Source: Candidatus Baldrarchaeum yapensis (GTDB lineage Archaea > Asgardarchaeota > Baldrarchaeia > Baldrarchaeales > Baldrarchaeaceae). Taken from it: DNA of 32,000 nucleotides. Below, one piece after another: positions 5,602 to 30,144 of the stretch (positions within the stretch are counted from its first letter, which is position 1; every line of letters starts with the position of its first letter). The stretch covers positions 60,176 to 92,175 of the forward strand of contig JAEOSH010000003.1 in NCBI GenBank assembly GCA_016840465.1, read 5' to 3'. Made by a program: the position numbers and the translations under genes. Under the pieces are notes generated by a model. It searched no databases. It saw only the letters and a list, made by a program, of their open reading frames with translations, and was not told where the DNA came from.

Positions 5602-5922
5602 ATGGCCATAGATTTATTCTCTTGGTATATTGGAACCGTAGTAGTACTGTATTCAATAGGCCTCTACTGCCTAGCATCTAAGAGAAATCTGGTGAAGATG
5701 GTCATAGCAATAGAAATACTGCTGGCTGCGGCAAACCTGAACTTCATCGTGATGAGCTACTTCATGAGAACAGGATACGTACACACACTGGCTCATGCCA
5801 TAGTCATAATCTCGATGGCAATCGGCGCATGTGTGGCCGCAATAGCCCTTTCGCTTGTTATGAACGCGTATAGGCATTATAAGACTCTGGATACCCGTAA
5901 GATGAGCAGACTCAGATGGTGA
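5602..5922 (+). CDS. nuoK: NuoK / MrpC / MbhG-like membrane subunit
   Basis: 'RNLVKMVIAIEILLAAANLNF' with the conserved Glu; three TM helices; GGAGGTGG SD. Confidence 0.9.
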   Translation: MAIDLFSWYIGTVVVLYSIGLYCLASKRNLVKMVIAIEILLAAANLNFIVMSYFMRTGYVHTLAHAIVIISMAIGACVAAIALSLVMNAYRHYKTLDTRKMSRLRW

Positions 5923-5936
5923 GGGGTGGTCGGGAG

Positions 5937-7958
5937 ATGTTACCGTACGCCCCTTGGTTGTGCTGGTTAATTCCACTCGGATTTGCAGTACTCATACCGC
6001 TGGCGGATAAAATTCACCCAAGAGTAAGAGATGGACTTGCAATACTCGGATCGTTCTTAGCGATGGTGTTTGCTGCCTCTATGATACCGGATGTGTTCGC
6101 AGGAAAAGTAACCATTTGGCCGGATGGAAAAGTCGTAGGCGAAATACCATATGGCCAATCAGTTTCTTGGATCAATGCGACCGTCTATGTGAATGGAAAT
6201 GAAACCAGAATAACACTTGGCGCGGGAGTTCTGGTCGATCCATTGAGTGTGTTCATGGCAAACATTGTTGGAATAATAGGGTTCCTCATAATGGTCTATA
6301 GCCTCGGATACATGGCTGGAGAGCCAGATATGCGACGATACTGGTTCTGGATGTCGACGTTCATAGGCTCCATGATCCTCCTAGTGATGGCTGATAACCT
6401 AATACAGATGTTCGTCGGATGGGAGTTAGTAGGTCTATGCAGCTGGCAGTTGATCGCTTTCTGGTTCAAGGCAACAACGCCCAGCCCAGTGCCCGACTTT
6501 AAGACCGAAGGCGAATACAATGCACATTGTGGAATGAAAGCATGGATAATGACAAGAGCTGGTGACATATGCCTCCTAATAGCAATTGCAGCAATTGGTT
6601 GGGCACAATTAAAGGCCGGTCAGCCGTTAACATTCAAGTTCATGGACCTTCAGGAATCTACTGGCTGGCTGAGGGTACTAGCAGACGTGGGATTGCTTGT
6701 ACCTATTAGTGTGTTGATGTTTGGAGGACCAGTGGGTAAGAGTGCACAATTCCCGTTACACGAGTGGCTACCTGAGGCTATGGCGGGTCCCACAACCGTT
6801 AGTGCACTGATACATGCCGCCACGATGGTTAAGGCTGGAGTATACCTAGTGGCAAGAATGGTACAAGTGTTCTACCTTGCCGGAGAAAGTGCCGGTATGT
6901 TGGTTGCACTCAAGCCGCTCTTCATAACCGTCGCGTGGATAGGTTGCTTCACGGCATTTCTGGCCGCAACACAGGCAATGGTTTCTATGGAGCTTAAGAA
7001 AGTCCTCGCATACTCGACAATAAGCCAAATAGGGTATATGATGCTGGGTCTTGGTGCTGGCGCGTTGCTACTGATACCAGCCCATGGTTATGTTGCCGGA
7101 ACATTCCATCTCATGTCTCATGCTGTCTTTAAGGCATTACTCTTCCTCTGTGCAGGATCGGTACTTCATGCGACCGAGACAAAGTACATGTATGAAATGG
7201 GCGGCCTTAAGGAGGATATGCCTATAACCTACTGGACAATGGTTATAGGTGCGGCCTCTCTTGCCGCAGTTCCCGGACTGGCAGGATTCTTCAGCAAAGA
7301 ACTAATACTTGAAATATTATGGAAGGAAGGACAACTTGCGCTCTTCACTCTCGCGACGGTCACCGCCGCATTGACCGCATTCTACAGCTTCAGAATGATA
7401 GGACTTACTTTCCACGGACCGAAGAGCGAGTACATAAAGAAGAGAGAGGAGGAAGGAAAACACGTCCACGAGGCTCCTCCAGTCATGTGGGTACCATTGG
7501 TGATACTTGCCGTAGCATCGATAGTCCTAGGATGGCTGGGTCCGTACTACGAGGCCTTTGCAACGAGCGGCAGATTCTGGGTAGCTCATGAGCTTGGTTC
7601 CGAAGTAACGCTCGAGAAGTATGCTCACTATTTGACAGAGGTCTTCGCAACACCAACTGCGGCCCTCTCGCTACTCATGCTAGTGATCGGAATAGTTCCC
7701 GCGTACTACATTTACATAAAGCGTAAGATCGATCCTGCCGAACTAGTAAGTAAGAACGTCGTACTAAGAGCGCTTTACACGTTCTTGTACAACAGATGGT
7801 ACATCAATCCGTTCTACTACAAGGTGTTCCTTAATGGAACTCAGGCATTCTCCCAGAGATTCCGAAAGTTGCAGACAGGGATACTCAATGTCAACGTTAT
7901 CCTGATGCTCATAGGATTTGTGGCCTTCATTGCGTATCTGGTGTTTTACCTCCTGTGA
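5937..7958 (+). CDS. nuoL: NuoL/MrpA-like proton-translocating antiporter subunit
   Basis: 'FVGWELVGLCSWQLI', 'GKSAQFPLHEWLPEAMAGPTTVSALIHAATMVKAG', 'KKVLAYSTISQIG'. Start placed at ATG 5937 (ORF track gives 5916). Confidence 0.95.
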   Translation: MLPYAPWLCWLIPLGFAVLIPLADKIHPRVRDGLAILGSFLAMVFAASMIPDVFAGKVTIWPDGKVVGEIPYGQSVSWINATVYVNGNETRITLGAGVLVDPLSVFMANIVGIIGFLIMVYSLGYMAGEPDMRRYWFWMSTFIGSMILLVMADNLIQMFVGWELVGLCSWQLIAFWFKATTPSPVPDFKTEGEYNAHCGMKAWIMTRAGDICLLIAIAAIGWAQLKAGQPLTFKFMDLQESTGWLRVLADVGLLVPISVLMFGGPVGKSAQFPLHEWLPEAMAGPTTVSALIHAATMVKAGVYLVARMVQVFYLAGESAGMLVALKPLFITVAWIGCFTAFLAATQAMVSMELKKVLAYSTISQIGYMMLGLGAGALLLIPAHGYVAGTFHLMSHAVFKALLFLCAGSVLHATETKYMYEMGGLKEDMPITYWTMVIGAASLAAVPGLAGFFSKELILEILWKEGQLALFTLATVTAALTAFYSFRMIGLTFHGPKSEYIKKREEEGKHVHEAPPVMWVPLVILAVASIVLGWLGPYYEAFATSGRFWVAHELGSEVTLEKYAHYLTEVFATPTAALSLLMLVIGIVPAYYIYIKRKIDPAELVSKNVVLRALYTFLYNRWYINPFYYKVFLNGTQAFSQRFRKLQTGILNVNVILMLIGFVAFIAYLVFYLL

Positions 7959-7969
7959 GGTGATTTGTC

Positions 7970-9493
7970 ATGTGGGGTCAAATAGCTGGCAAATATTTGC
8001 CGGCGGCTCCCATTATGGTACCAGTGGCGTTTGCGATTCTGGTATTCATAGTAGGGTATTTTGCCGAGGAAACTCGTGCTAGAAAGGTAGTAGACTGGCT
8101 TGCAACACTAGGAATGTTCTGCACTCTTGCGATCGCGATCAAAATTCTATACAAGGTGGTGTTCGGGGGATTTGTGCTCCAGTTCACGTACCCAATCGCA
8201 ACTCTTTCCATGCTCGGAACGGGCTTAAAGGTAGATGCTCTCAGCGCATTCATGGCAGTTATATTCTCCTCAATAGGTTTCGCCGCATCTCTTTACAGCG
8301 TGAGATACATGGAACACGACACAGGTCTGACACAGTACTATGTGCTACTGCTACTCCTAGTAGCATCGCTGAACGGCGTAGCATACGCTGCTGACCTGTT
8401 TACACTGTTCGTGTTCTATGAGATGATGGGCATATCCTCATATTCGCTGGTTGCCTTTAGAAAACACCAGTGGGAACCTGTCGAGGCAGCAATGAAGTAC
8501 CTCTTCATGGCAGCAATTGGAAGCACGGCTGTCCTCTTAGCAATGTCCATGCTCTATGGACTCACGGGAACGTTAAACTTCGAGGGGATAGCCAATGCCC
8601 TTAAGAACGCGGAGGCACCAACGGGTTACTTATACCTAGTAATTGCTCTACTGATAGGAGGATTTGGAGTAAAGGCGGCAATTGTGCCTATGCACTCATG
8701 GCTGATCGACGCACACCCTGCCGCACCGACAAGCATAAGTGCAATGCTGTCAGGAGTTGTGATAAAGGGCGGAGTATACGCACTGGTCAGAACGCTATTT
8801 ATGTTCTTCCCAGTCACGGTCTACCATTGGGACTGGATGCTCGCGGTAATAGGCGTCGTCACGATGACGGTCGCAAACATAATCGCCCTCGTGCAGGAGG
8901 ATATCAAGAGACTACTGGCGTACTCCAGTATATACAACATAGGCCTGATAATGCTGGGCGTATCAATAGGACACGTGAGCGTCCTTGGACTCACGGGTGC
9001 CATGTTCCATGTGCTGAACCACGCAATCATGAAAGCACTCGCTTTCTTATGTGCAGGGTGCTTCCTTCACGTTGTAGGCACTAGGATGCTCTCTGATCTT
9101 AAGGGAGTTGCGAGAAGAATGCCAATAACTGGAACATGCTTCGGAATAAGCCTACTGGCTCTGATGGGAGTTCCGCCGCTGAACGGGTTCTGGTCAAAGT
9201 TCTGGATAATACTCGCAGTGTTCCTACTACCAGACCCCGTGTACGGTGGAATCCTTGGAATGCTCGCGCTAATCAACGTGCTCCTGGCGACGGGCTATTA
9301 TGCGAAGGTTCTAAGGATAGTGTGGATGGATCCGGAGTCCGAAAAAGTCAAGGAGGCGAAAGAGGCACCACCCGAGATGCTAATCGCACTGATAATACTG
9401 ACACTGGCGATACTCGTGATAGGAGTATATCCGCAACCGTTCTTCGAAATCTCAGAAAAGGCAGCAGAAAGCGTTATAGGAGTACTCGGCTAA
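7970..9493 (+). CDS. MrpD/MbhH/NuoM-N-like antiporter subunit
   Basis: 'FVFYEMM', 'EAAMKYL', 'GFGVKAAIVPMHSWLIDAHPAAPT', 'KRLLAYSSI', 'GVPPLNGFWSK'. Confidence 0.93.
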   Translation: MWGQIAGKYLPAAPIMVPVAFAILVFIVGYFAEETRARKVVDWLATLGMFCTLAIAIKILYKVVFGGFVLQFTYPIATLSMLGTGLKVDALSAFMAVIFSSIGFAASLYSVRYMEHDTGLTQYYVLLLLLVASLNGVAYAADLFTLFVFYEMMGISSYSLVAFRKHQWEPVEAAMKYLFMAAIGSTAVLLAMSMLYGLTGTLNFEGIANALKNAEAPTGYLYLVIALLIGGFGVKAAIVPMHSWLIDAHPAAPTSISAMLSGVVIKGGVYALVRTLFMFFPVTVYHWDWMLAVIGVVTMTVANIIALVQEDIKRLLAYSSIYNIGLIMLGVSIGHVSVLGLTGAMFHVLNHAIMKALAFLCAGCFLHVVGTRMLSDLKGVARRMPITGTCFGISLLALMGVPPLNGFWSKFWIILAVFLLPDPVYGGILGMLALINVLLATGYYAKVLRIVWMDPESEKVKEAKEAPPEMLIALIILTLAILVIGVYPQPFFEISEKAAESVIGVLG

Positions 9494-9525
9494 CAAAAAA
9501 TAACAATTTTTTCCTTTTGTTTGTC
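9494..9525. terminator. Candidate bidirectional oligo-T terminator between convergent operons
   Basis: A6 (T6 on the minus strand) at 9495-9500, and T6 plus further T-runs at 9507-9520, between two convergent stop codons. Confidence 0.45.
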
Positions 9526-10098
9526 TTATTCTTTCTGCTTTTTATTTTGTGCAAAGAATCTTTTTGAAATGACGTCAAGAGCCCTTTTGACAAACTCCTT
9601 TTTGCCAGAAATCCTAATAGTATTTTCACTTTCTGCCTCAATCATCGCTCCCGTCTTTTTTTCAATACCCTTAAGCTCGTCGAAACTAGCTGCTCTCGGC
9701 AGTACTATCCTCACAAAGTCGACGTCTTTATCTCGTGGAATTCCCGGTATAAATGTCCCACCAAGTTGTGGTAGTGGTACGCGGAATTCCCCGCTCTTGG
9801 CCTTCCTTAAAAGCTCCTTCCATTTATTAACGTAGTCTTCTCCAAGAACCGTAGATGCATGTTCAAAGAGAATCTTCCTTGCACTATCTAAGAGCATATC
9901 AATATCTGCAATGAATGCCTCCTCCGTGGCTTTACCCCTCGCGAGATGAAGTTGCCAATGAGAAATTAAAAGACGAGAGTGGCGAAGATCTGCATTCACC
10001 TGTAGTGATGGTGGAACTCCCTTTGAGGTAAGATCTCCCAGCATCTTATTCAAAACAGTCCATATGGAGTATCTTATTTCAAGGTCCCTCTGAGACAA
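9526..10098 (-). CDS. DUF2096-family protein (conserved in methanogens and relatives)
   Basis: Recalled family pattern: W-x-VL..DL..KG...DLR; GEDYV..W..LL.KA..GE; F.PG.PR...VR; C-terminal ISG...VKRAL. Lies 9 bp downstream of hdrB. Confidence 0.7.
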   Translation of the reverse strand: MSQRDLEIRYSIWTVLNKMLGDLTSKGVPPSLQVNADLRHSRLLISHWQLHLARGKATEEAFIADIDMLLDSARKILFEHASTVLGEDYVNKWKELLRKAKSGEFRVPLPQLGGTFIPGIPRDKDVDFVRIVLPRAASFDELKGIEKKTGAMIEAESENTIRISGKKEFVKRALDVISKRFFAQNKKQKE

Positions 10099-10107
10099 GG
10101 TATCACC

Positions 10108-10998
10108 TTAGAGACCGATTTTTCTCAATAGAGGTCTCACGGGTATAATATTGTACTGAAGACCTAATACATGTGGCGATGCACCAAGTGCCAACATTAT
10201 CAACTGGGTTATAAACACAACCGGAAGTCCTAACTTCACTCCCATACGGTCCTCTATTTCCTTCTGTCCCCTATCGAATTGCAGGTGGCAGAACACGCAA
10301 GGTGTGGTCAGGCAATCGGCGCCTGCTCTCATCATGTTCTGAACTTTTTCCCTCGTCATGTCTAAACTCACATCTATCGATCCTGCTCTCACCCCGCCAC
10401 CCGCTCCACAGCACATAAGCTTATCCCTGTAATCTATACTTATGGCGTTCGTGGTTTCGATAATCCTGTCAAGGATCGTTGGTCGCTCGGGATGCTCATG
10501 CCGCCTAACCTCTCTGGGCTTTAAGAAGTGGCAACCATAATGAGCGGCCACTTTCAAGCCGCTGAGATCTCTTTCTATCTCGCTCCTTATTCTATTCAGC
10601 CCTATGTCATGCTCTATCACTTCAATTACATGCTTGACCTCTATGGTCCCCTTAAACTCTTTGTCGATGTTCTTTAGGATTTCATTAACCCACTCCCTGA
10701 GTTCCTTGTTCTCCTTTAAAAGATGATTTGCCTCCTGCAAACTTCCATAGCAGCCGTTACAACATGTTACTATGTCAGCGCCTAGACTCTCGGCAATGCA
10801 CAGGTTTCTTGCAGCTATAACGATCCAAGTGTAGAGATCAAAGGATCCAAACACTCCGGGTGCTGGGCAGCAGGAGGCTCCCTTCATATCTAGAAGTTCT
10901 ATGCCATATCTTGTCATAAGGTATCTTGTCGAGGCCTCAACGCCCGGGTACCTGTTGGGCATTATGCATCCGAGGAAAAACGCATATTTCTTCGCCAT
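10108..10998 (-). CDS. hdrB: Heterodisulfide reductase subunit B, canonical methanogen-like (copy 1)
   Basis: YAFFLGCIMPNRYPG, SCCPAPG, TCCNGC, HYGCH, LMCCGAGGG and TPCVFC: both non-cubane [4Fe-4S] CCG ligand sets are complete. Confidence 0.97.
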   Translation of the reverse strand: MAKKYAFFLGCIMPNRYPGVEASTRYLMTRYGIELLDMKGASCCPAPGVFGSFDLYTWIVIAARNLCIAESLGADIVTCCNGCYGSLQEANHLLKENKELREWVNEILKNIDKEFKGTIEVKHVIEVIEHDIGLNRIRSEIERDLSGLKVAAHYGCHFLKPREVRRHEHPERPTILDRIIETTNAISIDYRDKLMCCGAGGGVRAGSIDVSLDMTREKVQNMMRAGADCLTTPCVFCHLQFDRGQKEIEDRMGVKLGLPVVFITQLIMLALGASPHVLGLQYNIIPVRPLLRKIGL

Positions 10999-11568
10999 TT
11001 AACCACTCTCCTGATAACCAACCATTTGATCGAATTTCATAATTTTTATCAACTTTCTGACTTCATCCAGCGCCTCGGGATAAGAATGAACCGTGGGTGG
11101 CAATTCACTTAAACCTAAAGCCTTTCTGATCTCTTTAAACTCGTCGGTGATCGGAACTGCGTGACCAAATCTTATAAGAAGCCTTGCAACTCGTTTGTGT
11201 TGCTCTTTCATCCTGCCGCTTTTTGCAGCAATGTTTCTGATCACTCTGATGATGTCCGTAGTTCTGACGCCGCGCGGACACCTCTCATAACACGTATAAC
11301 AGGTGGTGCAGTACCAGAGCTCTTCACTTGAAAGCACCTCATCCTTGAGCCCAAGAAGAGCCTTGCGCATAACTAGACGCGTCCTATAAGCAGTTCTTCT
11401 GCCAGATGGGCAACTTCCACTGCACGTTCCGCACTGGAAACATGCAGTGATGGTTTCCATATGTTCTCTTCCGAAAATCTTGGACCCGTACTCTATTATC
11501 TCCTCAACAAACTTAGGATCGGTTTTTTCGAGTTGTATGACCTGTTCGGAAGCACTCATCGCGGACAC
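10999..11568 (-). CDS. hdrC: Heterodisulfide reductase subunit C (copy 1)
   Basis: CFQCGTCSGSCP and LWYCTTCYTCYERCPRGV; its stop abuts the hdrB ATG. Confidence 0.96.
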   Translation of the reverse strand: MSAMSASEQVIQLEKTDPKFVEEIIEYGSKIFGREHMETITACFQCGTCSGSCPSGRRTAYRTRLVMRKALLGLKDEVLSSEELWYCTTCYTCYERCPRGVRTTDIIRVIRNIAAKSGRMKEQHKRVARLLIRFGHAVPITDEFKEIRKALGLSELPPTVHSYPEALDEVRKLIKIMKFDQMVGYQESG

Positions 11569-11679
11569 CCATTACGGATCAGCCGGGAATTACATACCCG
11601 GTGTCCTTTATTTGTTCTTTCCCAAGAAAAGAGGTATCCTCCAGTTATTCTGGTTATTACGTAAAAAATGTATTGGGGG

Positions 11680-12774
11680 TCAATGCGCATTATACGCGGT
11701 CAAAATCGCGTTAACAAAGTCTTCAGGTGAGGTGCCGCTAGTTCTTATTTTTTTACTCTCAAAGACTTCCACAAGTGCGGACTTTAGGAGGTTCTTATCT
11801 AAGCGTAGACCCTTTAATGAGTTTTCCAAATCGGCTATTGCATCTCGAGGCTCGAGCCAAAAGTCCCCGCTTATCAAAATATCCCTGATCACTTCATCCT
11901 CCATCTCGAAAGTCACCCTGATTAAACCACCAGGGGACTTATAGACCCCCTCAACGATGTAAGTATCGCCTGCCACCTTAACTTTCCTTGTAGCAAGATT
12001 CGGATGTCTCTCCTCGTGTATAAATAGCCACTCATGCGAAAGATACTGCTCTCTGAGTTCCCGTATGATTTCCTCCTCTCTTCTCGTCAATTCACCTCTT
12101 TCAAGCTTAACATTGAGGTACTTCTCAAAATTCTTCACTAACAAGTCAACAACTCTGCTTCTATCCGGTACGTACCCTAACTCTCTCCTCAATGAGGTGA
12201 CCCTTTCCTTCAGACTTTTTGCAAACTTGTCCCTGAACTTCTCACTGGGTACCCTGAGAACCTTAACCATTATATCGTAATTAAAGTCGAGAATTATGTT
12301 GCCGACGAAGACAAATGCTTTCTCTATTTCCCCACCGCCGTTTCCACTGATCTTCCTACCGTTAACCTCTATGTCATTAACGGGTCTAAAGTACGCGTCG
12401 ACCCCTAACTCCCTATACGTTTGCACAGGAGCCCTTAAGAAGTACTCAAATCTACCAACGGTGTCCGCGGGGACATCTGACCAGTCCTGGGGAATCACCA
12501 GTTGATAAAATATCTGATTTTCGTCTAAGTATACGGCCCCGCCGCCAATAACTCTCCTCACTATTGGTATTCCCATTTTCCTGCAAAATTCTATGTCTAC
12601 CTCCTTTGAAACCTCCTGAAAATACCCGCAGGAAACCAGAGGTGATGCCGGCCAGTCTATGAAAAGTGTCGGTGGAATGTCCCCCTCGCTTAGAGCAATC
12701 GCCGCTGCATGCCATATTACCTGCGTCAAAACGGGATCTATCGGCCCAAGAAAAACGTATCGCAGCTTCTTCAT
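11680..12774 (-). CDS. lplA: Lipoate-protein ligase, catalytic plus C-terminal accessory domain (Lpl(AB), resembling the sLpl type)
   Basis: RRVIGGGAVYLDENQIFYQ, RPVNDIEVNGRKISGNG and GNIILDF; C-terminal domain YKSPGGLIRV...ISGDF. Confidence 0.92.
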   Translation of the reverse strand: MKKLRYVFLGPIDPVLTQVIWHAAAIALSEGDIPPTLFIDWPASPLVSCGYFQEVSKEVDIEFCRKMGIPIVRRVIGGGAVYLDENQIFYQLVIPQDWSDVPADTVGRFEYFLRAPVQTYRELGVDAYFRPVNDIEVNGRKISGNGGGEIEKAFVFVGNIILDFNYDIMVKVLRVPSEKFRDKFAKSLKERVTSLRRELGYVPDRSRVVDLLVKNFEKYLNVKLERGELTRREEEIIRELREQYLSHEWLFIHEERHPNLATRKVKVAGDTYIVEGVYKSPGGLIRVTFEMEDEVIRDILISGDFWLEPRDAIADLENSLKGLRLDKNLLKSALVEVFESKKIRTSGTSPEDFVNAILTAYNAH

Positions 12775-13217
12775 CTCAACTCTCCCTTCTTAAGCTTCTC
12801 CTCGTCCTCCTTGATCCACTTCTCTATGTTCTCGACACCATGAATTAGATTTTTCAAGTCCTCCTCTAAGTTCGTCGGTTCTATTACCGCGATCCACCCC
12901 TCACCGTACGGATCCTCATTTAATAACTCGACTCTTTTCTCCTTAACGAGTTTTTCATTCACCTCTATGATCTTCCCGCTGACTGGCGAATACAGAGTTC
13001 CGCGCCATTTCCCACTCTCAACAACCGCAAGAGGCTTTCCTTGCTCGACATGCCGCCCAACGGGGAGTACTCGTATTGCTATTGCTCGCCCTAAGGCCTG
13101 TTGCCCCCAGTCATCTATTCCCACACGAACCTTCCCATTTTCAATACGTGCCCACGTGTGCCTTGGATGATAGTAGAGATCCTCGGGGAATTCATATTTT
13201 CCGAGTATTTTTACCAA
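12771..13217 (-). CDS. gcvH: Glycine-cleavage-H-like / LbpA-like lipoyl carrier protein
   Basis: LYYHPRHTWAR, VRVGIDDWGQ, lipoyl-Lys motif VVESGKW, YSPVSG, LLNEDPYGEGWI. TTG start at 13217 after GGAGGT (ORF track gives 13232). Overlaps lplA by 4 bp. Confidence 0.9.
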   Translation of the reverse strand: MVKILGKYEFPEDLYYHPRHTWARIENGKVRVGIDDWGQQALGRAIAIRVLPVGRHVEQGKPLAVVESGKWRGTLYSPVSGKIIEVNEKLVKEKRVELLNEDPYGEGWIAVIEPTNLEEDLKNLIHGVENIEKWIKEDEEKLKKGELR

Positions 13218-13262
13218 TATGCCGACCTCCACAATTTCTGAAGAGAAGTCACCGCATTGAGA

Positions 13263-13406
13263 ATATAAATGATGTACAGAGACTTGTTAGGGTGTATCAT
13301 CCCAATATGCTTTTTCCAAAATAAAACGCAAAGTTGCTGGAAAAATCGAAATTTTGTCCCTGTGGGTTTATTGTTTAAACCCTTTTAATTGACGTATGAT
13401 TTATAT
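13263..13406. promoter_or_regulatory. Divergent promoter region: back-to-back TTTATAT boxes flanking two inverted repeats
   Basis: TTTATAT on the minus strand at 13263-13269 (about 46 nt from the gcvH start) and on the plus strand at 13400-13406 (about 48 nt from the nuoA start). Inverted repeats TTTTTCCA-N19-TGGAAAAA (13311-13345) and GGGTTTA-N5-TAAACCC (13364-13382). Confidence 0.5.
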
Positions 13407-13453
13407 TGGGTACCTTTCGAATAGTTAGCGACTCGCGGAACGAGGGAAGACGG

Positions 13454-13777
13454 ATGAGCGACGCGCTAACTGTCATAATAGCGTTTGTGGTCTGCCTTCT
13501 GACTTCAGCGTTCCTTTACGCGCTCGGACGGAAATTGGCACCACGGGGCAAAGAGAATGACGAGAAAGTAACACCATACGCATGCGGAGAAGACTACCCG
13601 GTCGAATACATACAGTATTACATCCACTGGTTCTACTACGCGGTCTTCTTCACAATACTTGAGGTTGCAGCGATACTCATAGCGTTCTCGCTGTTCGCAC
13701 CAAGCGTGGCGCTCGTGGTGGTAATAATATACACGATTATGGCCCTAATTGCCGCGTTTATGGCACCGCGTGAGTAG
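13454..13777 (+). CDS. nuoA: NuoA-like membrane subunit
   Basis: 'KVTPYACGED' loop, 'YYAVFFTILEVAAI', three TM helices. Start at ATG 13454 (ORF track gives 13406). Confidence 0.88.
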   Translation: MSDALTVIIAFVVCLLTSAFLYALGRKLAPRGKENDEKVTPYACGEDYPVEYIQYYIHWFYYAVFFTILEVAAILIAFSLFAPSVALVVVIIYTIMALIAAFMAPRE

Positions 13778-13787
13778 GTGATGTGAT

Positions 13788-14225
13788 ATGGGAATACTAG
13801 ATCGTATGGTCAAGTGGGCGCGTATAAGATCACCCTGGATACTCCACTTCAACACGGGAGGATGCAACGCGTGTGACATAGAGGTACTAGCAGTATTAAC
13901 TCCAAGATTTGATGTTGAGAGGTTCGGAATACTCCTAAAGGGAAGCCCCAGACATGCTGATGTGCTCGTAGTAACAGGTCCCGTGACGAGACAAGTTGCT
14001 AAGCGGCTAAAAAGAATTTATTATCAAATGCCTGAGCCTAAATTCGTAATGGCAGTAGGTGCATGCGCAGTCAGCGGTGGGGTCTTCAGGGGGGCTTATA
14101 ACGTACATATGGGACTCGACCAAGTACTTCCGGTCGATGTATACGTTCCCGGATGCCCACCAAAGCCGGAGGCCATCATTGATGGTGTTGTTAAGTTGTT
14201 AAAGAAGTTGGAGGAGGGTGGTTAG
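13788..14225 (+). CDS. Group 4 [NiFe]-hydrogenase small subunit (NuoB/MbhJ/EchC-like)
   Basis: TGGCNACDIE (CxxC, hydrogenase type rather than the tandem CC of NuoB), SPRHADVL, GACAVSGG, DVYVPGCPPKP. Confidence 0.93.
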   Translation: MGILDRMVKWARIRSPWILHFNTGGCNACDIEVLAVLTPRFDVERFGILLKGSPRHADVLVVTGPVTRQVAKRLKRIYYQMPEPKFVMAVGACAVSGGVFRGAYNVHMGLDQVLPVDVYVPGCPPKPEAIIDGVVKLLKKLEEGG

Positions 14226-14226
14226 T

Positions 14227-14724
14227 GTGAGCGAACTAAAAGCGGAACAGGAACTCGTCGAGGATGTAAAGAAACAGCTCGGTGACAAAATTGTGGACAC
14301 CAAGATCCAGAGGGCAAAGAGGGTGTATATAAGGGTAAAGGCTGGAGATCACCGTGACGTTATAAAGTACCTCAAGGAGAAATGGGACGCATATCACGTA
14401 TCGACAATCACTGGCGTTGACTTGGGCGAAAATATAGAACTTCTTTATCACCTGTTCGCCTATCGGGGAAATGTTACGGTCACCGTGCGAACCGAGGTTC
14501 CAAAGTCGGATCCCAAGATACAGACAATTGTTGACATAATTCCGGGCGCAACGCTCTATGAGAGAGAAGTTCATGACTTGCTGGGTGTGGTTTTTGAGGG
14601 ACATCCTGAGCTTGAACGTTTAATATTACCGGATGACTGGCCAGAGGGGGTATATCCCCTAAGAAAAGAATACAAACTCGAAGTTGAGGAAGTTGAAGAG
14701 GTTAAGGAGGAGGGTGAGGCATGA
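14227..14724 (+). CDS. nuoC: NuoC/MbhK-like subunit
   Basis: 'STITGVDLG', 'ATLYEREVHDLLGVVFEGHP', 'LPDDWPEGVYPLRK'. GTG start at 14227 or 14218. Confidence 0.92.
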   Translation: MSELKAEQELVEDVKKQLGDKIVDTKIQRAKRVYIRVKAGDHRDVIKYLKEKWDAYHVSTITGVDLGENIELLYHLFAYRGNVTVTVRTEVPKSDPKIQTIVDIIPGATLYEREVHDLLGVVFEGHPELERLILPDDWPEGVYPLRKEYKLEVEEVEEVKEEGEA

Positions 14725-15935
14725 GCGAGGAGAGGATGTTTAGAATTCCCGTTGGTCCTCAGCATCCCGCTCTTAAAGAACCGATAAACTTCACATTCAT
14801 AGTTGATGGAGAAAGGGTCGTGGATGTCAAGCCACGGATAGGATACAATCACCGCGGAATAGAGAAACTCATGGAATCGAAGACGTACATTCAAGGGCTT
14901 TATCTCATCGAGAGAATTTGCGGAATATGCTCGGCGGCGCATCAGGGATGTTACGCTCAGAACATAGAGGAGGCCGCAGGCATCGAGGCACCCCCACGTG
15001 GTGTATACCTCAGAACGCTAATCTGGGAGTTAGAAAGAATTCACAGCCATCTCCTGTGGGTAGGTGTCGCATACCACGAGATAGGGTTTGATACGCTATT
15101 CATGTATGTATGGCGTGACAGAGAGCGGGTTATGGACATATTGGAGATGATATCGGGTAACAGGGTCAACTACGCAATGAACACCATAGGTGGAGTTCGT
15201 AGGGATGTTACTCCCGAAATTGTAGACAATGCCCTAAAGGCCCTCGACTACTTGGAAGAGAGAACGAAGTACTACAAGAAGGTCACCGAAGAGGACGACA
15301 GCATCCTTGCAAGGACCGTCAACGTCGGAATACTGAAGACAGAAGATGCTAAGAGATTATGCGCCGTCGGCCCGACGGCAAGGGCATCAGGACTGAAGGT
15401 TGATGTGAGAAGAGACGACCCATACGGTGCTTACGACGAGTTGGACTTCGACGTCGTAGTTTATGACACCTGCGACCTTACCGCGAGAGTACTCGTACGT
15501 ATAGACGAGGTTCTCGAAAGTATAAAAATGTGCCGCCAGATTCTCCAGAACCTCCCATCTGGGCCCGTTAGAGTGAAATTCAAGAGAAAGGTTCCAGAAG
15601 GAGAGTCAATAAGCAAGGTGGAGGCCCCTCGTGGAGAGGACTTACACTATGTCAAGGCAAATGGCACTGAAAAACCGGAGAGGTACAAGGTGAGAGCACC
15701 TACACTTGCGAATATACCGTCGGTCTGCGAGATGCTAAAGGGAGGATACATTGCCGACATCCCAATAGTATTCGCTGGTATCGATCCCTGTATTGCGTGC
15801 ACCGACAGGATGTTGTTCATAGATGTGAATACTGAGCGAAAGTGGATGTGGACGGAAGAGGAGTTGAGGATGTACGCGCGTAAGTGGTATAAGAAACATC
15901 TTAAGGAAGTGGTGAGGGAAAGATGGAAGTGCTAG
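14721..15935 (+). CDS. Group 4 energy-converting [NiFe]-hydrogenase large subunit (NuoD homologue with Ni ligands)
   Basis: L1 motif ERICGICSAAH and L2 motif DPCIACTDR are both intact; also GYNHRGIEK, EAPRGE, RAPT; about 40 aa extension after the L2 Arg. Confidence 0.93.
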   Translation: MSEERMFRIPVGPQHPALKEPINFTFIVDGERVVDVKPRIGYNHRGIEKLMESKTYIQGLYLIERICGICSAAHQGCYAQNIEEAAGIEAPPRGVYLRTLIWELERIHSHLLWVGVAYHEIGFDTLFMYVWRDRERVMDILEMISGNRVNYAMNTIGGVRRDVTPEIVDNALKALDYLEERTKYYKKVTEEDDSILARTVNVGILKTEDAKRLCAVGPTARASGLKVDVRRDDPYGAYDELDFDVVVYDTCDLTARVLVRIDEVLESIKMCRQILQNLPSGPVRVKFKRKVPEGESISKVEAPRGEDLHYVKANGTEKPERYKVRAPTLANIPSVCEMLKGGYIADIPIVFAGIDPCIACTDRMLFIDVNTERKWMWTEEELRMYARKWYKKHLKEVVRERWKC

Positions 15936-16939
15936 AACTCATACTCCTTATATTGGCAACTGTGTTGTTCCCCGGTGTTGTGTTCTGCACGTATTACGCC
16001 CTATTTCTAGAGTGGGTTGATCGAAAGTTCTTTGCAAGGCTCCAGAACAGAGTGGGGCCTTGGATAACTGGGCCAAAAGGAATACTGCAGCCCATTGCGG
16101 ATATAATAAAGTTACTCGCAAAAGAGGACATAACTCCAAATGGGGTTGATAGAGCCGGTTTCGTCGGTGCACCTTTCTTCGCATTAACCTTAGCGCTGTT
16201 CTCATTGATGTTCGTGCCAATAGCATCAACAAGCGGAATACTCTCATTTAAAGGAGATCTGCTCATAGTGCTGTTCATATCCACGGTATTCGGCATCATA
16301 ATAATATTCGCCGGGTACGTCTCTGCAAGCAGATTCTCGATAGTCGGCACTGCAAGAGCGGGGCTCCAGTTCGTGGGGTACGAAATCCCGCTCTTTGTGT
16401 CAGCAATTATTCCCGCACTTATAGCCAGGTCTCTGACATTGAAGGAAATAGTGGAGTGGCAGATTGCACATTACCCACTGATACTATGCTTCCCTGCAAT
16501 GATAGCATTCGGAATCTTCATAGTATGTTCCCTTGCGAAACTCGAAAAACTGCCGTTTGACATACCCGAAGCAGAAACGGAGATAGTTGCAGGGTGGGCA
16601 ACAGAGTTCAGCGGAAAGAAGTTGGCCCTCTTTAGACTTTCAACGGACCTGAAAATGTTGCTTCTTGCCGGATTGGCGACTGCATTGTTCCTTGGTGGAC
16701 CTGCACCCTGGGGCTTCACACTTCCGGCAGATCTAAATCCGTACCTTGCGGCGCTCATATACTCGATATGGTTCGTGATAAAGACAATAATCGTTGTGCT
16801 TATAATGTCCACGTTGAAAGCGGCATTTGCAAGGTACAGGATAGATCAGGCACTTAGGGGCTTCTGGAGATATCTAACGCCCCTATCGCTTGCAATACTA
16901 ATACTTACGCCTATAGTCGCCTATCATTTCTACTGGTAG
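15923..16939 (+). CDS. nuoH: NuoH/MbhM-like membrane subunit
   Basis: 'DRKFFARLQNRVGP', 'LQPIADIIKLLAKE', 'PFDIPEAETEIVAGWATEFSG', 'RYRIDQ'. Confidence 0.95.
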   Translation: MEVLELILLILATVLFPGVVFCTYYALFLEWVDRKFFARLQNRVGPWITGPKGILQPIADIIKLLAKEDITPNGVDRAGFVGAPFFALTLALFSLMFVPIASTSGILSFKGDLLIVLFISTVFGIIIIFAGYVSASRFSIVGTARAGLQFVGYEIPLFVSAIIPALIARSLTLKEIVEWQIAHYPLILCFPAMIAFGIFIVCSLAKLEKLPFDIPEAETEIVAGWATEFSGKKLALFRLSTDLKMLLLAGLATALFLGGPAPWGFTLPADLNPYLAALIYSIWFVIKTIIVVLIMSTLKAAFARYRIDQALRGFWRYLTPLSLAILILTPIVAYHFYW

Positions 16940-16949
16940 GTGATGTAAG

Positions 16950-17306
16950 ATGAGATTACCCGCAAGGTTCTCACCCGAATTGCTGAGGCATGTGCCGCGC
17001 AAGCCGGCAACAGTAATGTATCCGTTTGTCCCCGTGGAAGCACCGGAGGGCTTCAGGGGAAAACATGAATTTGATATAGAGAAGTGCGTTGGATGCGGCC
17101 TGTGCGCAAGGGATTGCCCCTCAGGAGCAATAGAAATGGTTCCCGATGAGAGAACAAAGGGCAAAAAGCGTCCTGTGATCCACTTGGACAGATGCCTCTT
17201 CTGTGCCCAGTGCGAGGAGTCATGCCCAAGAGGGGCGATAAAGCTAACAAAAGTGTACGAAATGGCGGGCTACAAGAGGGAAGAAATGGTAGTCACCGCC
17301 CCCTGA
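16950..17306 (+). CDS. nuoI: NuoI/MbhN-like 2x[4Fe-4S] subunit
   Basis: 'PATVMYPF...FRGKH', CVGCGLCARDCP, CLFCAQCEESCP. Confidence 0.94.
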   Translation: MRLPARFSPELLRHVPRKPATVMYPFVPVEAPEGFRGKHEFDIEKCVGCGLCARDCPSGAIEMVPDERTKGKKRPVIHLDRCLFCAQCEESCPRGAIKLTKVYEMAGYKREEMVVTAP

Positions 17307-20005: not shown

Positions 20006-20944
20006 TTAAATTTTCACCCAGATTTCTTTAATCTTTTCGAGCAGAGGTTGCGTACTTATTGCGTGTAGATGTAAGCATAACTGGGTACGAGGATTTAATC
20101 CCAAAACTAGTCCTATTAACTGGCTGAGGTGGAGAACGGGTATTTGAAAATCTATCTTCCCACTTTTGTACAGATCTCTTTGGCAAATATCAAGCCTGTA
20201 CATACACGCAGGGCACCACACGACTATCATATCTGCACCGACTCTATGGATACTTTCTAACTTCCTTATGCATATATTTTCCGATAACTCGTAATGGACT
20301 CGTGACTGTATGCCGGATCCCCCGCAACACAAGTTTTTCTCCGAGTAATCCACGACCTCGGCCCCTAAATCGCTTAATAACTCGTCTACAAATCTTGGGT
20401 TCTTGTGGTCATCGAATTTCCTGAACATCAACTCGCGACGATAATGACATCCATAATGCACTGCAACTCTCAGCCCTTCTAGCGAGAATCTCATCCGACG
20501 CAGAATTTCATCCTTAAATGCATAAAACATCTCAGGTACATGGAAGATGTCAACATCTAAGTCGTTTACATCATCGGGAGTCCGACCAATTATCTCAGCT
20601 ATCCTCCGAGCCAGATCCTCGTTATTACTTAGTTCTCGAAGAGCATGATTAAACGCAGTGTAGCATGCGTTACAAACAACAAGTACTGCCTTGCAAGCGA
20701 GACTCTTTGCTAGGAGCATATTTCGGGCGCAGAGGGAAACCATGACTTCGGGTGGCGACATATTCCAAAAGAATGTGGGAAAGCCGCAACATGTCTGGTC
20801 ATCTGACATCAGGAAGGGTATGTCGAGAAACTTGAGCACAAAGTACGTGGCCACCTCTATCCCAGGATGGGCCTGCACGCAAGGCCGGAAGAGGAAGAAG
20901 GGCACCGTCTCTCTAATAATGCTGAAGTCCCTATCATTAGACAT
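20006..20944 (-). CDS. hdrB: Heterodisulfide reductase subunit B-like, divergent (copy 2)
   Basis: RPCV, QTCCGFP, VVCNAC, AVHYGCH, LCCGGSG, WCPAC: CCG-domain cysteines are retained, but the flanking motifs differ from copy 1. Confidence 0.88.
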   Translation of the reverse strand: MSNDRDFSIIRETVPFFLFRPCVQAHPGIEVATYFVLKFLDIPFLMSDDQTCCGFPTFFWNMSPPEVMVSLCARNMLLAKSLACKAVLVVCNACYTAFNHALRELSNNEDLARRIAEIIGRTPDDVNDLDVDIFHVPEMFYAFKDEILRRMRFSLEGLRVAVHYGCHYRRELMFRKFDDHKNPRFVDELLSDLGAEVVDYSEKNLCCGGSGIQSRVHYELSENICIRKLESIHRVGADMIVVWCPACMYRLDICQRDLYKSGKIDFQIPVLHLSQLIGLVLGLNPRTQLCLHLHAISTQPLLEKIKEIWVKI

Positions 20945-21470
20945 TTCTACTCACCTTTTTCATGTATTCTAAGGCTTCTGACTTCTCAAATATGCGCTTA
21001 ACGTCTCTAAGCGCATCTTCTGAAACAGACCTTGGTGGTATACCGACCTCCCTCTGGAGATTTATCAGATTATCTGTTAGCGGAACAGAAAGCCCCGTTT
21101 CCATGATGTTTTCCGCGAATTTTATTATCTTGCTCATCTTTAATAGCGTGTTTATGTCCTGTAAGAGCACGCCAGCGTATCTGAGATTTATTATGAACAA
21201 CGCCGGGTTTATCGACCGCGGGCACTTCATCGCGCATTCAAAACACAGCAGGCAGTCCCAAATGTTCTCACGTTCAAATATATCACCTAATGAGCATAAA
21301 AGGAAACGCCCGACGATCCTTCGGATATTAAAGTTGGAAAAGCGTGCCGCTGGGCAATCGCCGACGCACATCCCACACTGGTAGCAGGTTTCTATATTGC
21401 CCGCTCTTTTTCTCAAGTCCTCCTTTATTGCCCGTTCCACGGATTCGGGGATCGTCTGCGATCCTCTCAA
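20937..21470 (-). CDS. hdrC: Heterodisulfide reductase subunit C-like (copy 2)
   Basis: CYQCGMCVGDCP and IWDCLLCFECAMKCPRSI; overlaps hdrB2 by 8 bp. Confidence 0.9.
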   Translation of the reverse strand: MRGSQTIPESVERAIKEDLRKRAGNIETCYQCGMCVGDCPAARFSNFNIRRIVGRFLLCSLGDIFERENIWDCLLCFECAMKCPRSINPALFIINLRYAGVLLQDINTLLKMSKIIKFAENIMETGLSVPLTDNLINLQREVGIPPRSVSEDALRDVKRIFEKSEALEYMKKVSRNV

Positions 21471-23601: not shown

Positions 23602-24901
23602 GTTTTTTGAATTTCCCCCGCTCTATAAGTCTTCTTATTCCTATTTTCGATATCTCGTCCTCTAGACGCTTTAACCTCTGTTGTAACTCGTCTTTGACAT
23701 CTTCAGGTACACTTGGAACTTCTCGTAACTCTTCCGCTGGAATTCTCTCCTCAATTTCAATTTTCGCATACCGCTGATGCTTTGGTGTTTCACGATTGAT
23801 AGTTGCATCTATTATTGCTCTTTTCCTAGACCCTGCCCACAGAGATGGAACCTCCGGATCAATAATGTTCACCGATGTTATCTCGACTTTAATTATATTT
23901 TCCGGGCATGCTCTCTCACAAGACCCGCAGAATATGCATAGACTCTCATTAACGGCTATCTTGCCTTCCCTTTCTGGGTCCTTTGGAATATACCAGCAAT
24001 TTACGGGACATATGTTTATACAGGCCTTACAACCAAGCGGATCGCACTTCTCTATATGGAAAAGCTTTATCTTTCCCTCGAAGCGCTTTTTTACCTCAAT
24101 GGCGTTTCTGGGACAAGTATTGGTACACCATCCGCAGTAAATGCAGTTTTCCTCGTTTATAACCACGTCTCCCGTGATGCGTGGTATTTCTATTTCTCTT
24201 TCAACTGGTGTTATGCACTTCACCTCTATTGCCTCATCAGGACAAATCTCTGCACAGAGGCCACAAAAATCACATTTCTCCAAGTTCACACTTATTGAGG
24301 AGGCAAAAGTGAGATCTGAGGGATCCGGCTTTTTCCACTCAATTACTATTGCATCGCACAATTCTGCACAAATACCACAAAATGTGCACTTTTCTTCGTT
24401 TATTTTTATTTCACCTTCGATTTTTTCGGGCATCTTCTTATATCTTACCAGATCTTCCTTCTTTTTAAGTTGAATTCTGACCTCTATACACCTCGTTGGG
24501 CAAATAGTCTCGCAAATCCTACAAGGAATGCACTTCTCTTTATCAATTCTTATACTTCCTACAATCCTCGGATACTCTTTCAGTGTCTCGATTCTCTGAC
24601 CATTTATTTCGAAAATTATCGCATTGATAGGACAGATTTCGGCACAAAGACCGCAAAACTGACATTTATCTTGATCAAAGGTTATTTTCGCAAATTTTCC
24701 ATCCATTTTCCCTGTAGCTATCTGGGGTATCGGTCCAAGAGAAATAGCACCCGTTGGGCATACCTCTACACATAATCCACATCCGACACACGTGTCCGTA
24801 TTGTAAATTAGCCTTTTCTTATAATTACGCCCAATCCACGTAACTATCATTTCGTTCTCCGTGAAGTCCAATAATATTTGGGGAGAAAACTCATCCGGCA
24901 C
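23594..24901 (-). CDS. fwdF: FwdF-like polyferredoxin, 8x[4Fe-4S]
   Basis: Eight ferredoxin-type motifs: CVGCGLC, CQFCGLC, CIPCRIC, CTFCGIC, CDFCGLC, CIYCGWC, CDPLGCKAC, CIFCGSC. Overlaps the end of hdrA-mvhD by 11 bp. Confidence 0.85.
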   Translation of the reverse strand: MPDEFSPQILLDFTENEMIVTWIGRNYKKRLIYNTDTCVGCGLCVEVCPTGAISLGPIPQIATGKMDGKFAKITFDQDKCQFCGLCAEICPINAIIFEINGQRIETLKEYPRIVGSIRIDKEKCIPCRICETICPTRCIEVRIQLKKKEDLVRYKKMPEKIEGEIKINEEKCTFCGICAELCDAIVIEWKKPDPSDLTFASSISVNLEKCDFCGLCAEICPDEAIEVKCITPVEREIEIPRITGDVVINEENCIYCGWCTNTCPRNAIEVKKRFEGKIKLFHIEKCDPLGCKACINICPVNCWYIPKDPEREGKIAVNESLCIFCGSCERACPENIIKVEITSVNIIDPEVPSLWAGSRKRAIIDATINRETPKHQRYAKIEIEERIPAEELREVPSVPEDVKDELQQRLKRLEDEISKIGIRRLIERGKFKKLT

Positions 24902-29181: not shown

Positions 29182-30144
29182 ATGAAGCTAAATCCCCCAA
29201 TAAGTATTAAAGATGCTAAGAAGATTCTGTCTGCACCGGATCAGGAGTTAAAGGCTCTCATGGAACATGCGAGGAAAGTCGCGGAGGATATCCATGGGCC
29301 GAACATTACTTTCTATGTACCAGGTAATAGCTTCCCAGCAATTTCGATAACTGGAACGAAGTGCTGGCTGCTATGTAAGCATTGTGTTGGGCATTACTTA
29401 AAGGGAATGATACCAGCAACAACTCCAGACGAGTTTCGAGAACTCTGTGTAAGACTCTGGAAAAGGGGGGCAAAGGGCTGTCTCATAAGTGGTGGTTACA
29501 CACGCTTCGGTGCACTTCCAATAGAATCTTTCTTTGAGGCAATAAAGTATGTGAAGAAAAACACAAAATTGCTACTAAATGTCCATCCCGGGTTTTTATC
29601 ACGTAATTCAATAATGCGTTTGGTGCAATGCGGCATCGATGCGGCATCGATAGATGTTGTGGGAAGTGAAGAAACAACAAAACAAGTATATGGCATCAGT
29701 AAGGATCCTCAAAGCTATGATAAATTATTATGCGAATTTAAAACGGCAGGAGTACCAATATTAGCCCCACACGTCTGTATAGGATTACATTTTGGTAAGC
29801 TACTCGGGGAACTTCATGCTCTTTCAATAATAAGGAATCATGAACCATCGGTTCTCGTATTCATAATCTTTACACCGACTCGTGGAACTCCCATGGAGGC
29901 GTGCAGTCCTCCGAACATTAAGGATGTTATCAGGCTCATTGTAGCCGCACGTCTGATGATGCCAGGTGTTCCGATATCCCTAGGATGTATGAGACCTAAG
30001 GGAACGTATAGAAGGGTTCTAGACGAAGTGTGCATGAGGGCAGGCGTTAACAGAATAGTTATACCGAGTGGGGTTGCATTAGATGTGGCTCGCGATCTGG
30101 GCTATGAGGTGTTAAGTAAAGATTTATGTTGTGTTTTCGCATGA
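29182..30144 (+). CDS. lipS1: Radical SAM protein, LipS1-type archaeal lipoyl synthase subunit
   Basis: CxxxCxxC (CWLLCKHC) preceded by FPAISITG; GCLISGG; LNVHPG; PHVCIGL; ISLGCMRP; C-terminal LCC. GC(M/A)R and CC are the auxiliary-cluster motifs I recall for T. kodakarensis LipS1. Confidence 0.78.
   Translation: MKLNPPISIKDAKKILSAPDQELKALMEHARKVAEDIHGPNITFYVPGNSFPAISITGTKCWLLCKHCVGHYLKGMIPATTPDEFRELCVRLWKRGAKGCLISGGYTRFGALPIESFFEAIKYVKKNTKLLLNVHPGFLSRNSIMRLVQCGIDAASIDVVGSEETTKQVYGISKDPQSYDKLLCEFKTAGVPILAPHVCIGLHFGKLLGELHALSIIRNHEPSVLVFIIFTPTRGTPMEACSPPNIKDVIRLIVAARLMMPGVPISLGCMRPKGTYRRVLDEVCMRAGVNRIVIPSGVALDVARDLGYEVLSKDLCCVFA

Follow-up and report, generated by a model that had tools for sequence, protein, structure and literature searches.

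A lipoyl carrier gene beside methanogen-type hdrCB in an Asgard archaeon: a possible protein-bound partner of heterodisulfide reductase

The subject of this analysis is a run of five genes within a 32,000-nucleotide stretch of DNA (hereafter 'the window') from the Asgard archaeon Candidatus Baldrarchaeum yapensis. These genes encode a GcvH-like lipoyl carrier (GcvH3), a lipoate- or octanoate-protein ligase (LplA), two subunits of a heterodisulfide reductase (Hdr), which we call HdrC1 and HdrB1, and a DUF2096 protein. Many anaerobic archaea and bacteria have no coenzymes M and B (CoM and CoB), and the substrate of their Hdr is a long-standing gap. For Asgard archaea it has been called an 'unidentified heterodisulfide' (Valentin-Alvarado et al. 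2024, PMC11291895). We consider it quite possible, although we hold this view tentatively, that lipoylated GcvH3 serves as the protein-bound dithiol/disulfide partner of HdrBC-type modules. The window lies in a genome of 2.27 Mb (100 contigs, 96% completeness) that is the sole member of its family, and four genomes share its order. The run is composed of the following features.

12771..13232, minus strand: GcvH3, a GcvH-like, LbpA-like lipoyl carrier; open reading frame (ORF) of 153 amino acids (PF01597 1.6e-34)
11680..12774, minus strand: lplA, lipoate/octanoate-protein ligase with Lpl(AB) architecture (LplA-B_cat at residues 29-216 and Lip_prot_lig_C at residues 280-357)
11569..11679, minus strand: intergenic gap of 111 bp between lplA and hdrC, read from the sequence
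10999..11568, minus strand: HdrC1, two-[4Fe-4S] subunit (TIGR03290 234.5 bits, cut-off 160)
10108..10998, minus strand: HdrB1, canonical catalytic subunit with two CCG domains (TIGR03288 438 bits, cut-off 345)
9526..10098, minus strand: DUF2096 protein with a four-helix bundle and a KH-like C domain (PF23100 1.3e-10, PF09869 2.3e-4)

A first-pass annotation of this DNA described the five genes as co-oriented, and this arrangement is borne out, with all of them located on the minus strand. The gcvH3 and lplA genes overlap by 4 bp, hdrC and hdrB abut, and the DUF2096 gene, which was not seen adjoining hdrB in the loci of relatives, starts 9 bp past hdrB. Given that GcvH3 homologues begin with MVKI, the real start of this protein is likely the TTG codon at 13217, which is also the coordinate given at first pass. 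The gene order is not an artefact of assembly, since its junctions are spanned by independent metagenome contigs of 73.6 kb (run X4, covering window positions 8500-13399) and 3.8 kb (run X3, covering 10579-14388), where two or three letters differ. The metagenomes found to contain window DNA derive from sediment, seawater or hydrothermal vents.

A putative dedicated lipoyl carrier and its ligase

GcvH3 scores below the cut-off of the GcvH equivalog model TIGR00527 (94.9 against 115.85) and just passes the subfamily model NF002270 (121 against 117). Its lipoyl-lysine is K75, which resides in the motif ESGKW and is invariant in an alignment of 30 sequences. The protein has an isoelectric point (pI) of 5.9 and a net charge of -3, compared with pI values of 4.4-4.5 and net charges of -15 and -16 for its two paralogues in the genome. 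A tree of 131 GcvH-like proteins, drawn from every locus that was fetched, places GcvH3 in a 22-row group (Shimodaira-Hasegawa-like approximate likelihood ratio support, SH-aLRT, 91) together with the orthologues from same-order genomes and proteins from Bathyarchaeia. This group is separate from the one that contains the paralogues GcvH1 and GcvH2 and all but one of the rows linked to gcvT or gcvP. The same tree was used to set apart the many canonical GcvH2-like genes that were also pulled in when metagenomes were scanned with the GcvH3 alignment.

The two kinds of protein differ in several respects. At the lipoyl-lysine, members of the GcvH3 clade carry E(S/T)GKW, whereas H proteins linked to glycine cleavage carry ESVKA or ESTKS. 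The median pI is 7.35 for the former and 4.5 for the latter, and the net charge of the 25 residues before the lysine is approximately +3.5 and -3, respectively. The K-W motif is present in nearly every LplA- or Hdr-linked homologue extracted. The closest homologue of GcvH3 is labelled Baldrarchaeota, and an Aquifex aeolicus protein with 48% identity combines the K-W motif with the N- and C-terminal cysteine signature of LbpA.

LbpA proteins typically have one conserved cysteine near each terminus, with some archaeal LbpAs as exceptions (PMC6067878), and the acidic surface of GcvH and the basic surface of LbpA let ligases tell the two apart (preprint 10.64898/2026.10.01.755906). GcvH3 exhibits the GcvH fold with its lipoyl-lysine, and its sequence indicates a basic to neutral surface. 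The equivalog score, the ESVKA-type motif and the gcvT/gcvP gene company expected for a glycine-cleavage H protein are all missing. Judged by its sequence, then, GcvH3 appears to be a dedicated LbpA-like lipoyl carrier and not a glycine-cleavage H protein. The first-pass description of the carrier as LbpA-like holds with regard to the ESGKW motif and the pI, and fails with regard to the LbpA cysteines.

LplA falls below every NCBIfam equivalog cut-off except that for LplB (68.1 against 65), and its closest relatives are Asgard and Bathyarchaeia proteins with identities of at most 55%. Ligases of the sLpl(AB) type are not separable from others by profile, and are instead recognised by their context, namely LipS1/S2 and an LbpA neighbour (Tanabe et al., PMC10332631). 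LipS1 is encoded in the window, and LipS2 was recovered elsewhere in the genome by its family model (C35:24877-25797; 368 bits, cut-off 270), having been missed by a tblastn search with LipS1. LipA was not found in the genome. By this contextual standard, the window ligase qualifies as a putative sLpl(AB), in keeping with its initial portrayal as sLpl-like, and lipoate assembly in this organism is expected to follow the ligase-LipS1/S2 route. We had also considered whether a match to NF053751 meant that sLpl(AB) ligases have the reverse domain order, which would have set the window ligase apart as a different type. This idea was dropped, because the domains of sLpl(AB) are themselves arranged as AB and its definition rests on context (PMC10332631). 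A second LplA on contig C12 includes the catalytic domain only.

The lipoyl acceptors detected in the genome are the three GcvH paralogues only. GcvH1 is a canonical H protein whose gene is located with gcvPB, gcvPA and gcvT on contig C1, and GcvH2 is encoded by an orphan gcvH gene on contig C86. A genome search revealed no E2 lipoyl domain or biotin-lipoyl domain beyond GcvH3, and none of the window ORFs of at least 100 amino acids encodes a 2-oxoacid dehydrogenase or the P, T or L protein of glycine cleavage, as noted at first pass. The gcvP and gcvT genes have their own gcvH on another contig, and GcvH3 is probably not the H protein of the glycine cleavage system.

An alternative idea is that Hdr takes the place of a missing L protein, re-oxidising dihydrolipoyl H proteins (or reducing them, in a reductive glycine pathway), such that glycine cleavage would be coupled to ferredoxin or H2 and not to nicotinamide adenine dinucleotide (NAD). 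The genes for glycine cleavage are available, and no dihydrolipoyl dehydrogenase in the genome exceeds the family cut-off. The best candidate (C96:17401-18744; 143 bits against 409) looks like a CoA-disulfide reductase or NADH oxidase. The lipoamide couple, at about -290 mV, also lies between H2 and ferredoxin. Nevertheless, we judge this explanation to be quite unlikely, because the paralogue encoded with gcvT and gcvP is not GcvH3, because the acidic surface that is usual in H proteins docking to P, T and L is missing from GcvH3, and because the Hdr-linked loci, with the exception of L198, lack gcvT and gcvP.

Gene neighbourhoods of the carrier

Conserved gcvH-lplA-hdrCB synteny was put forward as a check in the first-pass annotation. 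The exact order is absent from 30 relatives and is unique to this genome among those examined. What does recur is proximity of the carrier to Hdr genes, which is seen in three of the four same-order genomes and at several Bathyarchaeia loci. Among the loci anchored on lplA (80 from genomes, 30 from relatives), most have lplA alone or lplA with gcvH only. The conserved partner of Hdr is the carrier, and not the ligase.

In three same-order genomes (G001, G002 and G004), a convergent gene for a GcvH3 orthologue (57-62% identity) comes after hdrC-hdrB-hdrA, with no other window gene near. The HdrA that follows hdrCB in G002 finds its best match in the Baldrarchaeum genome in the HdrA2 protein of the window. 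This observation suggests that the window hdrCB and hdrA2 genes were formerly contiguous, and that HdrA2 is probably the ancestral partner of HdrC1B1. Directly 5' of hdrC-hdrB-hdrA in G002 is a gene for a formate-dehydrogenase-like molybdopterin oxidoreductase of 652 amino acids (L138:6852-8810), which suggests a formate-linked Hdr in G002 where the window has hydrogenase genes.

Several Bathyarchaeia loci likewise bring these genes together. At L045:231-9107, a tight operon carries genes for NfnA-like, NfnB/GltD-like and DsrE proteins, then hdrC, hdrB, hdrA, a gcvH-like gene, an OsmC-like gene and lplA. At L142 and L143, hdrC-hdrB-gcvH-lplA faces a second hdrCBA set, and at L058, hdrA-C-B is followed 3 kb further on by gcvH-lplA. 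Bacterial loci (L059, L066 and L067) combine these genes too. Overall, an Hdr gene lies within 5 kb of the carrier gene in five or six of the eight independent clade lineages with enough flanking sequence, whereas positions this close to an Hdr homologue make up only 4.2% of the Baldrarchaeum genome.

The elements of the window that bear on these comparisons are as follows.

5602..9493, plus strand: NuoK-like, NuoL-like and antiporter-like M/N subunits, the membrane half of a group-4 hydrogenase/Nuo-like set (Pfam Oxidored_q2, Proton_antipo_M/N/C)
13406..17306, plus strand: NuoA, NuoB, NuoC, [NiFe] large subunit (D-like), NuoH and NuoI (Pfam matches)
20006..21470, minus strand: HdrC2-HdrB2, a second, divergent pair (CCG and Fer4 domains; TIGR03288 189 bits only)
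24891..27272, minus strand: HdrA2-MvhD fusion of 793 amino acids (NF040770 1106 bits, cut-off 1100)
29182..30144, plus strand: LipS1 lipoyl synthase subunit (NF053742 270 bits, cut-off 230)

The run from gcvH3 to the DUF2096 gene is nested between the two plus-strand halves of the group-4 [NiFe]-hydrogenase/Nuo-like set, of which the NuoA-B-C-D-H-I half is divergent from gcvH3 across 173 bp. This context was not used at first pass. The two Ni-Fe cysteine pairs of the large subunit (14721-15935) are both present, as RICGIC (residues 64-70) and DPCIAC (residues 355-360), and the set is therefore assigned as a group-4 membrane [NiFe]-hydrogenase. HdrA2 is of the long bifurcating type and not a short sHdrA, and in HdrB2 most of the residues that contact CoM and CoB are replaced. 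Fwd-like genes and a polyferredoxin gene are located downstream of the hydrogenase set.

Group-4 [NiFe]-hydrogenase genes are the second recurrent neighbour of the carrier. In one Asgard family (f8), nuoA and then a GcvH-like gene lie opposite nuoB-C-D-H-I, and the encoded NuoB is 71% identical to that of the window. In another (f32), the carrier gene is positioned between nuoM/nuoK and ATP synthase genes. The wider flanks in these two families contain hydrogenase or ATP synthase neighbours and no Hdr genes. At a metagenome locus (L153), hdrC-hdrB-nuoM-nuoH faces the carrier gene.

Three further observations concern the hydrogenase genes and their surroundings. First, an AIR-synthase-related gene (17449-18471) located 3' of the hydrogenase genes matches 'methanogenesis marker 2' at 365.3 against a cut-off of 365, in a genome with no detected McrA. 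Second, a related AIR-synthase gene (L265:11503-12228) comes after nuoA-gcvH in family f8. Third, the same genome has a second group-4-hydrogenase/Nuo-like operon (contig C1:650-8012, L230), wherein the order is ferredoxin, NuoL, NuoC, a 294-amino-acid HdrB-like CCG protein, a NuoD-like large subunit, NuoH, NuoI and a NuoK-like protein. The CCG protein thus takes the position between NuoC and NuoD that a NuoB-type subunit would normally fill, and the scanned stretch contains no NuoB. This operon resembles the 'Ehd-like' clusters of Kohtz et al. 2022 (PMC9723716).

Some relatives of the carrier have lost the lipoyl-lysine. In Bathyarchaeia Hdr loci (L142:12359-12787, L143 near 12327 and L080 near 9301), a second GcvH-like copy has arginine at this position (ESGRRIV) and therefore is not lipoylatable. 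The L142 copy adjoins genes for a flavin adenine dinucleotide-linked oxidase and an HdrD-like CCG protein. GcvH-like proteins of 200 amino acids encoded near HdrA/C/B genes (L178:4323-4709 and L187:7992-8384) have methionine instead (ETWMF), and represent another non-lipoylatable derivative.

The neighbours of the carrier also bear on a role in sulfur or antioxidant chemistry, wherein lipoyl-GcvH3 would bring sulfane sulfur to Hdr in the manner of LbpA and sHdr, or dihydrolipoyl-GcvH3 reduced by Hdr would feed lipoyl-dependent peroxidases, as OsmC/Ohr peroxidases are. At L045, the presence of a DsrE gene 5' of hdrCBA and of an OsmC-like gene flanked by gcvH and lplA may be a sign that the lipoyl carrier of that lineage is set amid sulfur or peroxide chemistry. 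In G002, the carrier gene is on the same strand as genes for a helix-turn-helix regulator and a thioredoxin, and a second thioredoxin-like gene and a cysteine desulfurase gene are nearby. Moreover, GcvH-L of Staphylococcus aureus is reported to protect against oxidative stress (PMC12440151). We regard such a role as very unlikely for the locus described herein, where no DsrE, rhodanese, OsmC or peroxiredoxin gene is present in the window, HdrA2 is not the short sHdrA, and both TusA and the cysteines of LbpA are missing.

The lipoyl carrier as a candidate Hdr partner

The remaining component, HdrB1, was characterised at first pass as canonical and methanogen-like, and we concur. Beyond its TIGR03288 score, the protein is approximately 60% identical to methanogen HdrB, matches methanogen structures with E-values from 1e-95 to 1e-119 (8.8e-119 against PDB 5ODC chain B), and keeps all ten CCG cysteines. 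In the structure 5ODR, CoM and CoB are contacted by Arg14, Gly46, Gly198, Arg201, Phe233 and Arg240 (PMC13261682). All six residues are kept in HdrB1, as R16, G48, G201, R204, F236 and R243, and all six are also kept in the HdrB1 orthologues of the same-order genomes. In the GcvH-adjacent HdrB proteins of Bathyarchaeia L045, L058 and L142, and in that of L153, between one and three of the contact arginines are no longer present.

We had considered using these residues as a test of the substrate, but they do not discriminate. Among the 120 closest HdrB proteins, which are labelled as methanogen, Bathyarchaeia, Jordarchaeia or Freyarchaeia proteins, five of the six positions are near-invariant whatever the lineage, and Arg243 is present in 59 of the 120. 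Because non-methanogen HdrB proteins keep the contacts equally well, the pocket is canonical without being proof of a CoM-S-S-CoB substrate. Methanogen Hdr is also known to take several non-native disulfides (PMC13261682). A complex prediction for HdrB1 and GcvH3, with each protein supplied as an alignment, returned a score of 0.00 without controls and speaks neither for nor against binding.

The window pair has the equivalog scores, cysteines and contacts of a CoB-CoM heterodisulfide reductase, and what appears to be missing is a host that produces CoM-S-S-CoB. The presence of mcr and com genes was among the checks proposed at first pass, and McrA, ComA and ComD (sulfopyruvate decarboxylase alpha) were not found in the 96%-complete genome. 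McrA was likewise not found in any of the four same-order genomes. The protein-bound dithiolane is proposed as the Hdr couple on the basis of the conserved gene linkage, together with the fact that no other known Hdr substrate or lipoyl-dependent enzyme was found.

A number of observations weigh against the proposal that lipoylated GcvH3 is the partner of HdrBC. In addition to the uniqueness of the exact gene order, approximately 26 other Asgard GcvH3-like loci have no Hdr gene within 1.5 kb, and lineages L141 and L151 have none within 4-5 kb. No residue of the HdrB1 pocket signals an altered substrate, and all six CoM/CoB contacts are retained. The likeness to LbpA is incomplete, in that GcvH3 has no cysteines (the median for the ESGKW clade is also zero), TusA was not found anywhere in the genome, and DsrE and rhodanese, both searched for in the window only, were not found there. 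Finally, hdrCB and the DUF2096 gene may form a separate transcript, given the T6 run and the AT-rich box located in the 111-bp gap. As read from the sequence, the T6 run is 14 nucleotides 3' of the lplA stop codon, and the box, AAATAAAG, is approximately 45 nucleotides 5' of an in-frame ATG at 11559. The gap also includes a GGGTG ribosome-binding site and, just 5' of the hdrC start, a small inverted repeat or hairpin (CCGGG-9 nt-CCCGG, 11575-11598, minus strand).

Many of these same features are accommodated by an explanation in which the two proteins have no direct contact. HdrC1B1 would then reduce a small disulfide, either CoM-S-S-CoB-like or some other, and gcvH3-lplA would be a lipoylation cassette within a syntenic Asgard island of energy genes for ATP synthase, hydrogenase and Hdr. 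Syntenic blocks of Hdr, hydrogenase and ATPase genes have been noted (PMC11291895), and the carrier of family f32 adjoins ATP synthase genes. The close identity of HdrB1 with methanogen HdrB and its canonical pocket, including an Arg243 that only about half of its close homologues retain, agree with a small substrate, as do the terminator-like T6 run and promoter-like box in the lplA-hdrC gap and the distance of most Asgard GcvH3-like genes from Hdr. We nonetheless consider this account somewhat unlikely. McrA, ComA and ComD were not found, and the link between the carrier and Hdr has been kept in the same-order genomes though the rest of the neighbourhood is different, has independent counterparts in Bathyarchaeia and bacteria, and is found in a genome with no other lipoyl-dependent enzyme detected that would need a third carrier.

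On balance, the suggestion made at first pass, that the lipoyl carrier could be the substrate or sulfur carrier of HdrBC, gains from the paralogy of the carriers, the canonical HdrB, the failure to find McrA, ComA and ComD, and the recurrent linkage, and loses from the unique gene order and the absence of the LbpA cysteines and TusA. If lipoylated GcvH3 is indeed the partner of HdrBC, the adjacent Lpl(AB) ligase would load octanoate or lipoate onto K75, and LipS1 and LipS2 would insert two sulfurs, as is inferred from the families to which these proteins belong. The resulting protein-bound dithiolane could act as a dithiol/disulfide couple at the two non-cubane clusters of HdrB-type subunits, and would thereby take the place of CoM-S-S-CoB, a compound that this organism is apparently unable to produce. 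The source of electrons may be the bifurcating HdrA2 module, the membrane [NiFe]-hydrogenase encoded on either side, or the two together, in line with the model for the Ehe complex of Culexarchaeia discussed below.

A broader version of this proposal, which we consider doubtful, holds that in archaea without CoM and CoB (Asgard, Bathyarchaeia and Culexarchaeia), lipoate on ESGKW carriers generally plays the part of the 'heterodisulfide' for Hdr. In the organism studied here, the carrier would move back and forth between the soluble, bifurcating HdrA2 module and the membrane [NiFe]-hydrogenase in whose gene set its own gene is embedded, to form an ion-coupled redox loop of H2/ferredoxin and lipoyl-protein. 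CoB, a free cofactor, would then imitate the lipoyl arm with its acyl-thiol arm.

Should lipoylated GcvH3 prove to be an Hdr partner, models of energy metabolism in Asgard, Bathyarchaeia and related lineages would need revision, and the evolutionary tie between methanogen Hdr and the sHdr-LbpA system of sulfur oxidisers would become clearer. The locus offers a compact, clonable test set from one organism, comprising the carrier, the ligase and a canonical HdrBC similar to the crystallised methanogen enzyme, and both lipoyl synthase subunits of the genome have been identified as well.

Comparison with known systems

Three previously described systems resemble parts of the window. In methanogens, the MvhAGD-HdrABC and Fdh-HdrABC complexes (PDB 5ODC and 7BKB) contain an HdrB that is approximately 60% identical to HdrB1, with all cluster ligands and CoM/CoB contacts in common. 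They differ from the window system in that Mcr and CoM genes were not detected in the Baldrarchaeum genome, and in that a lipoyl carrier and ligase adjoin hdrCB.

The only experimentally established pairing of a lipoyl protein with Hdr is sHdr-LbpA of sulfur oxidisers (PMC6067878, PMC10332631). The sHdr-LbpA-sLpl(AB)-LipS1/S2 system of Hyphomicrobium denitrificans, Thioalkalivibrio and Aquifex has several features in common with the system described here, namely a GcvH-derived carrier that has the K-W motif and a surface that is not acidic, a separate Lpl(AB) ligase for that carrier, adjacent hdr genes, and sulfur insertion by LipS1/LipS2 with no LipA. However, the window Hdr is of the methanogen type, with canonical HdrB and HdrC and a long HdrA-MvhD fusion. 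The short, non-bifurcating sHdrA and the gene order shdrC1B1AHC2B2 that characterise the sHdr complex are both missing. The host also belongs to a strict-anaerobe lineage with Wood-Ljungdahl-type genes, and its carrier has neither of the two LbpA cysteines nor the sulfur-transferase company (TusA in the genome; DsrE and rhodanese in the window) of its counterpart.

The third system is the Ehe complex of Culexarchaeia, in which a membrane [NiFe]-hydrogenase is combined with HdrBC and an antiporter subunit, and beside which HdrA2B2C2 and GcvH are encoded (Kohtz et al. 2022, PMC9723716). These authors relate Ehe to Ehd, Drh and Ehg, and, because the CoM and CoB pathways are missing in Culexarchaeia, they proposed that HdrB sees the lipoyl group of GcvH as its disulfide. 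Hence, the idea considered herein, which was not known at first pass to be characterised, had already been put forward as a hypothesis in 2022. Both loci include a group-4 hydrogenase with an antiporter-like subunit, hdrBC, an HdrA2-type fusion, hdrB2C2 and a stand-alone GcvH. In addition, Culexarchaeia lack CoM/CoB and Mcr, and McrA, ComA and ComD were not detected in the host of the window. In its gene content and its two CxxC pairs, the window set conforms to the Ehe/Ehd type, with the co-located hdrBC and gcvH genes on the opposite strand. The window differs in its phylum (Asgard), in having hdrCB and gcvH embedded between the two halves of the hydrogenase set and oriented against it, in the inclusion of a lipoate ligase in the run, and in having no SdhA or CdhA gene nearby. 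As judged from gene content, the window appears to be the Ehe parts list in an Asgard genome with a ligase added, and the underlying hypothesis is the one already published for Culexarchaeia.

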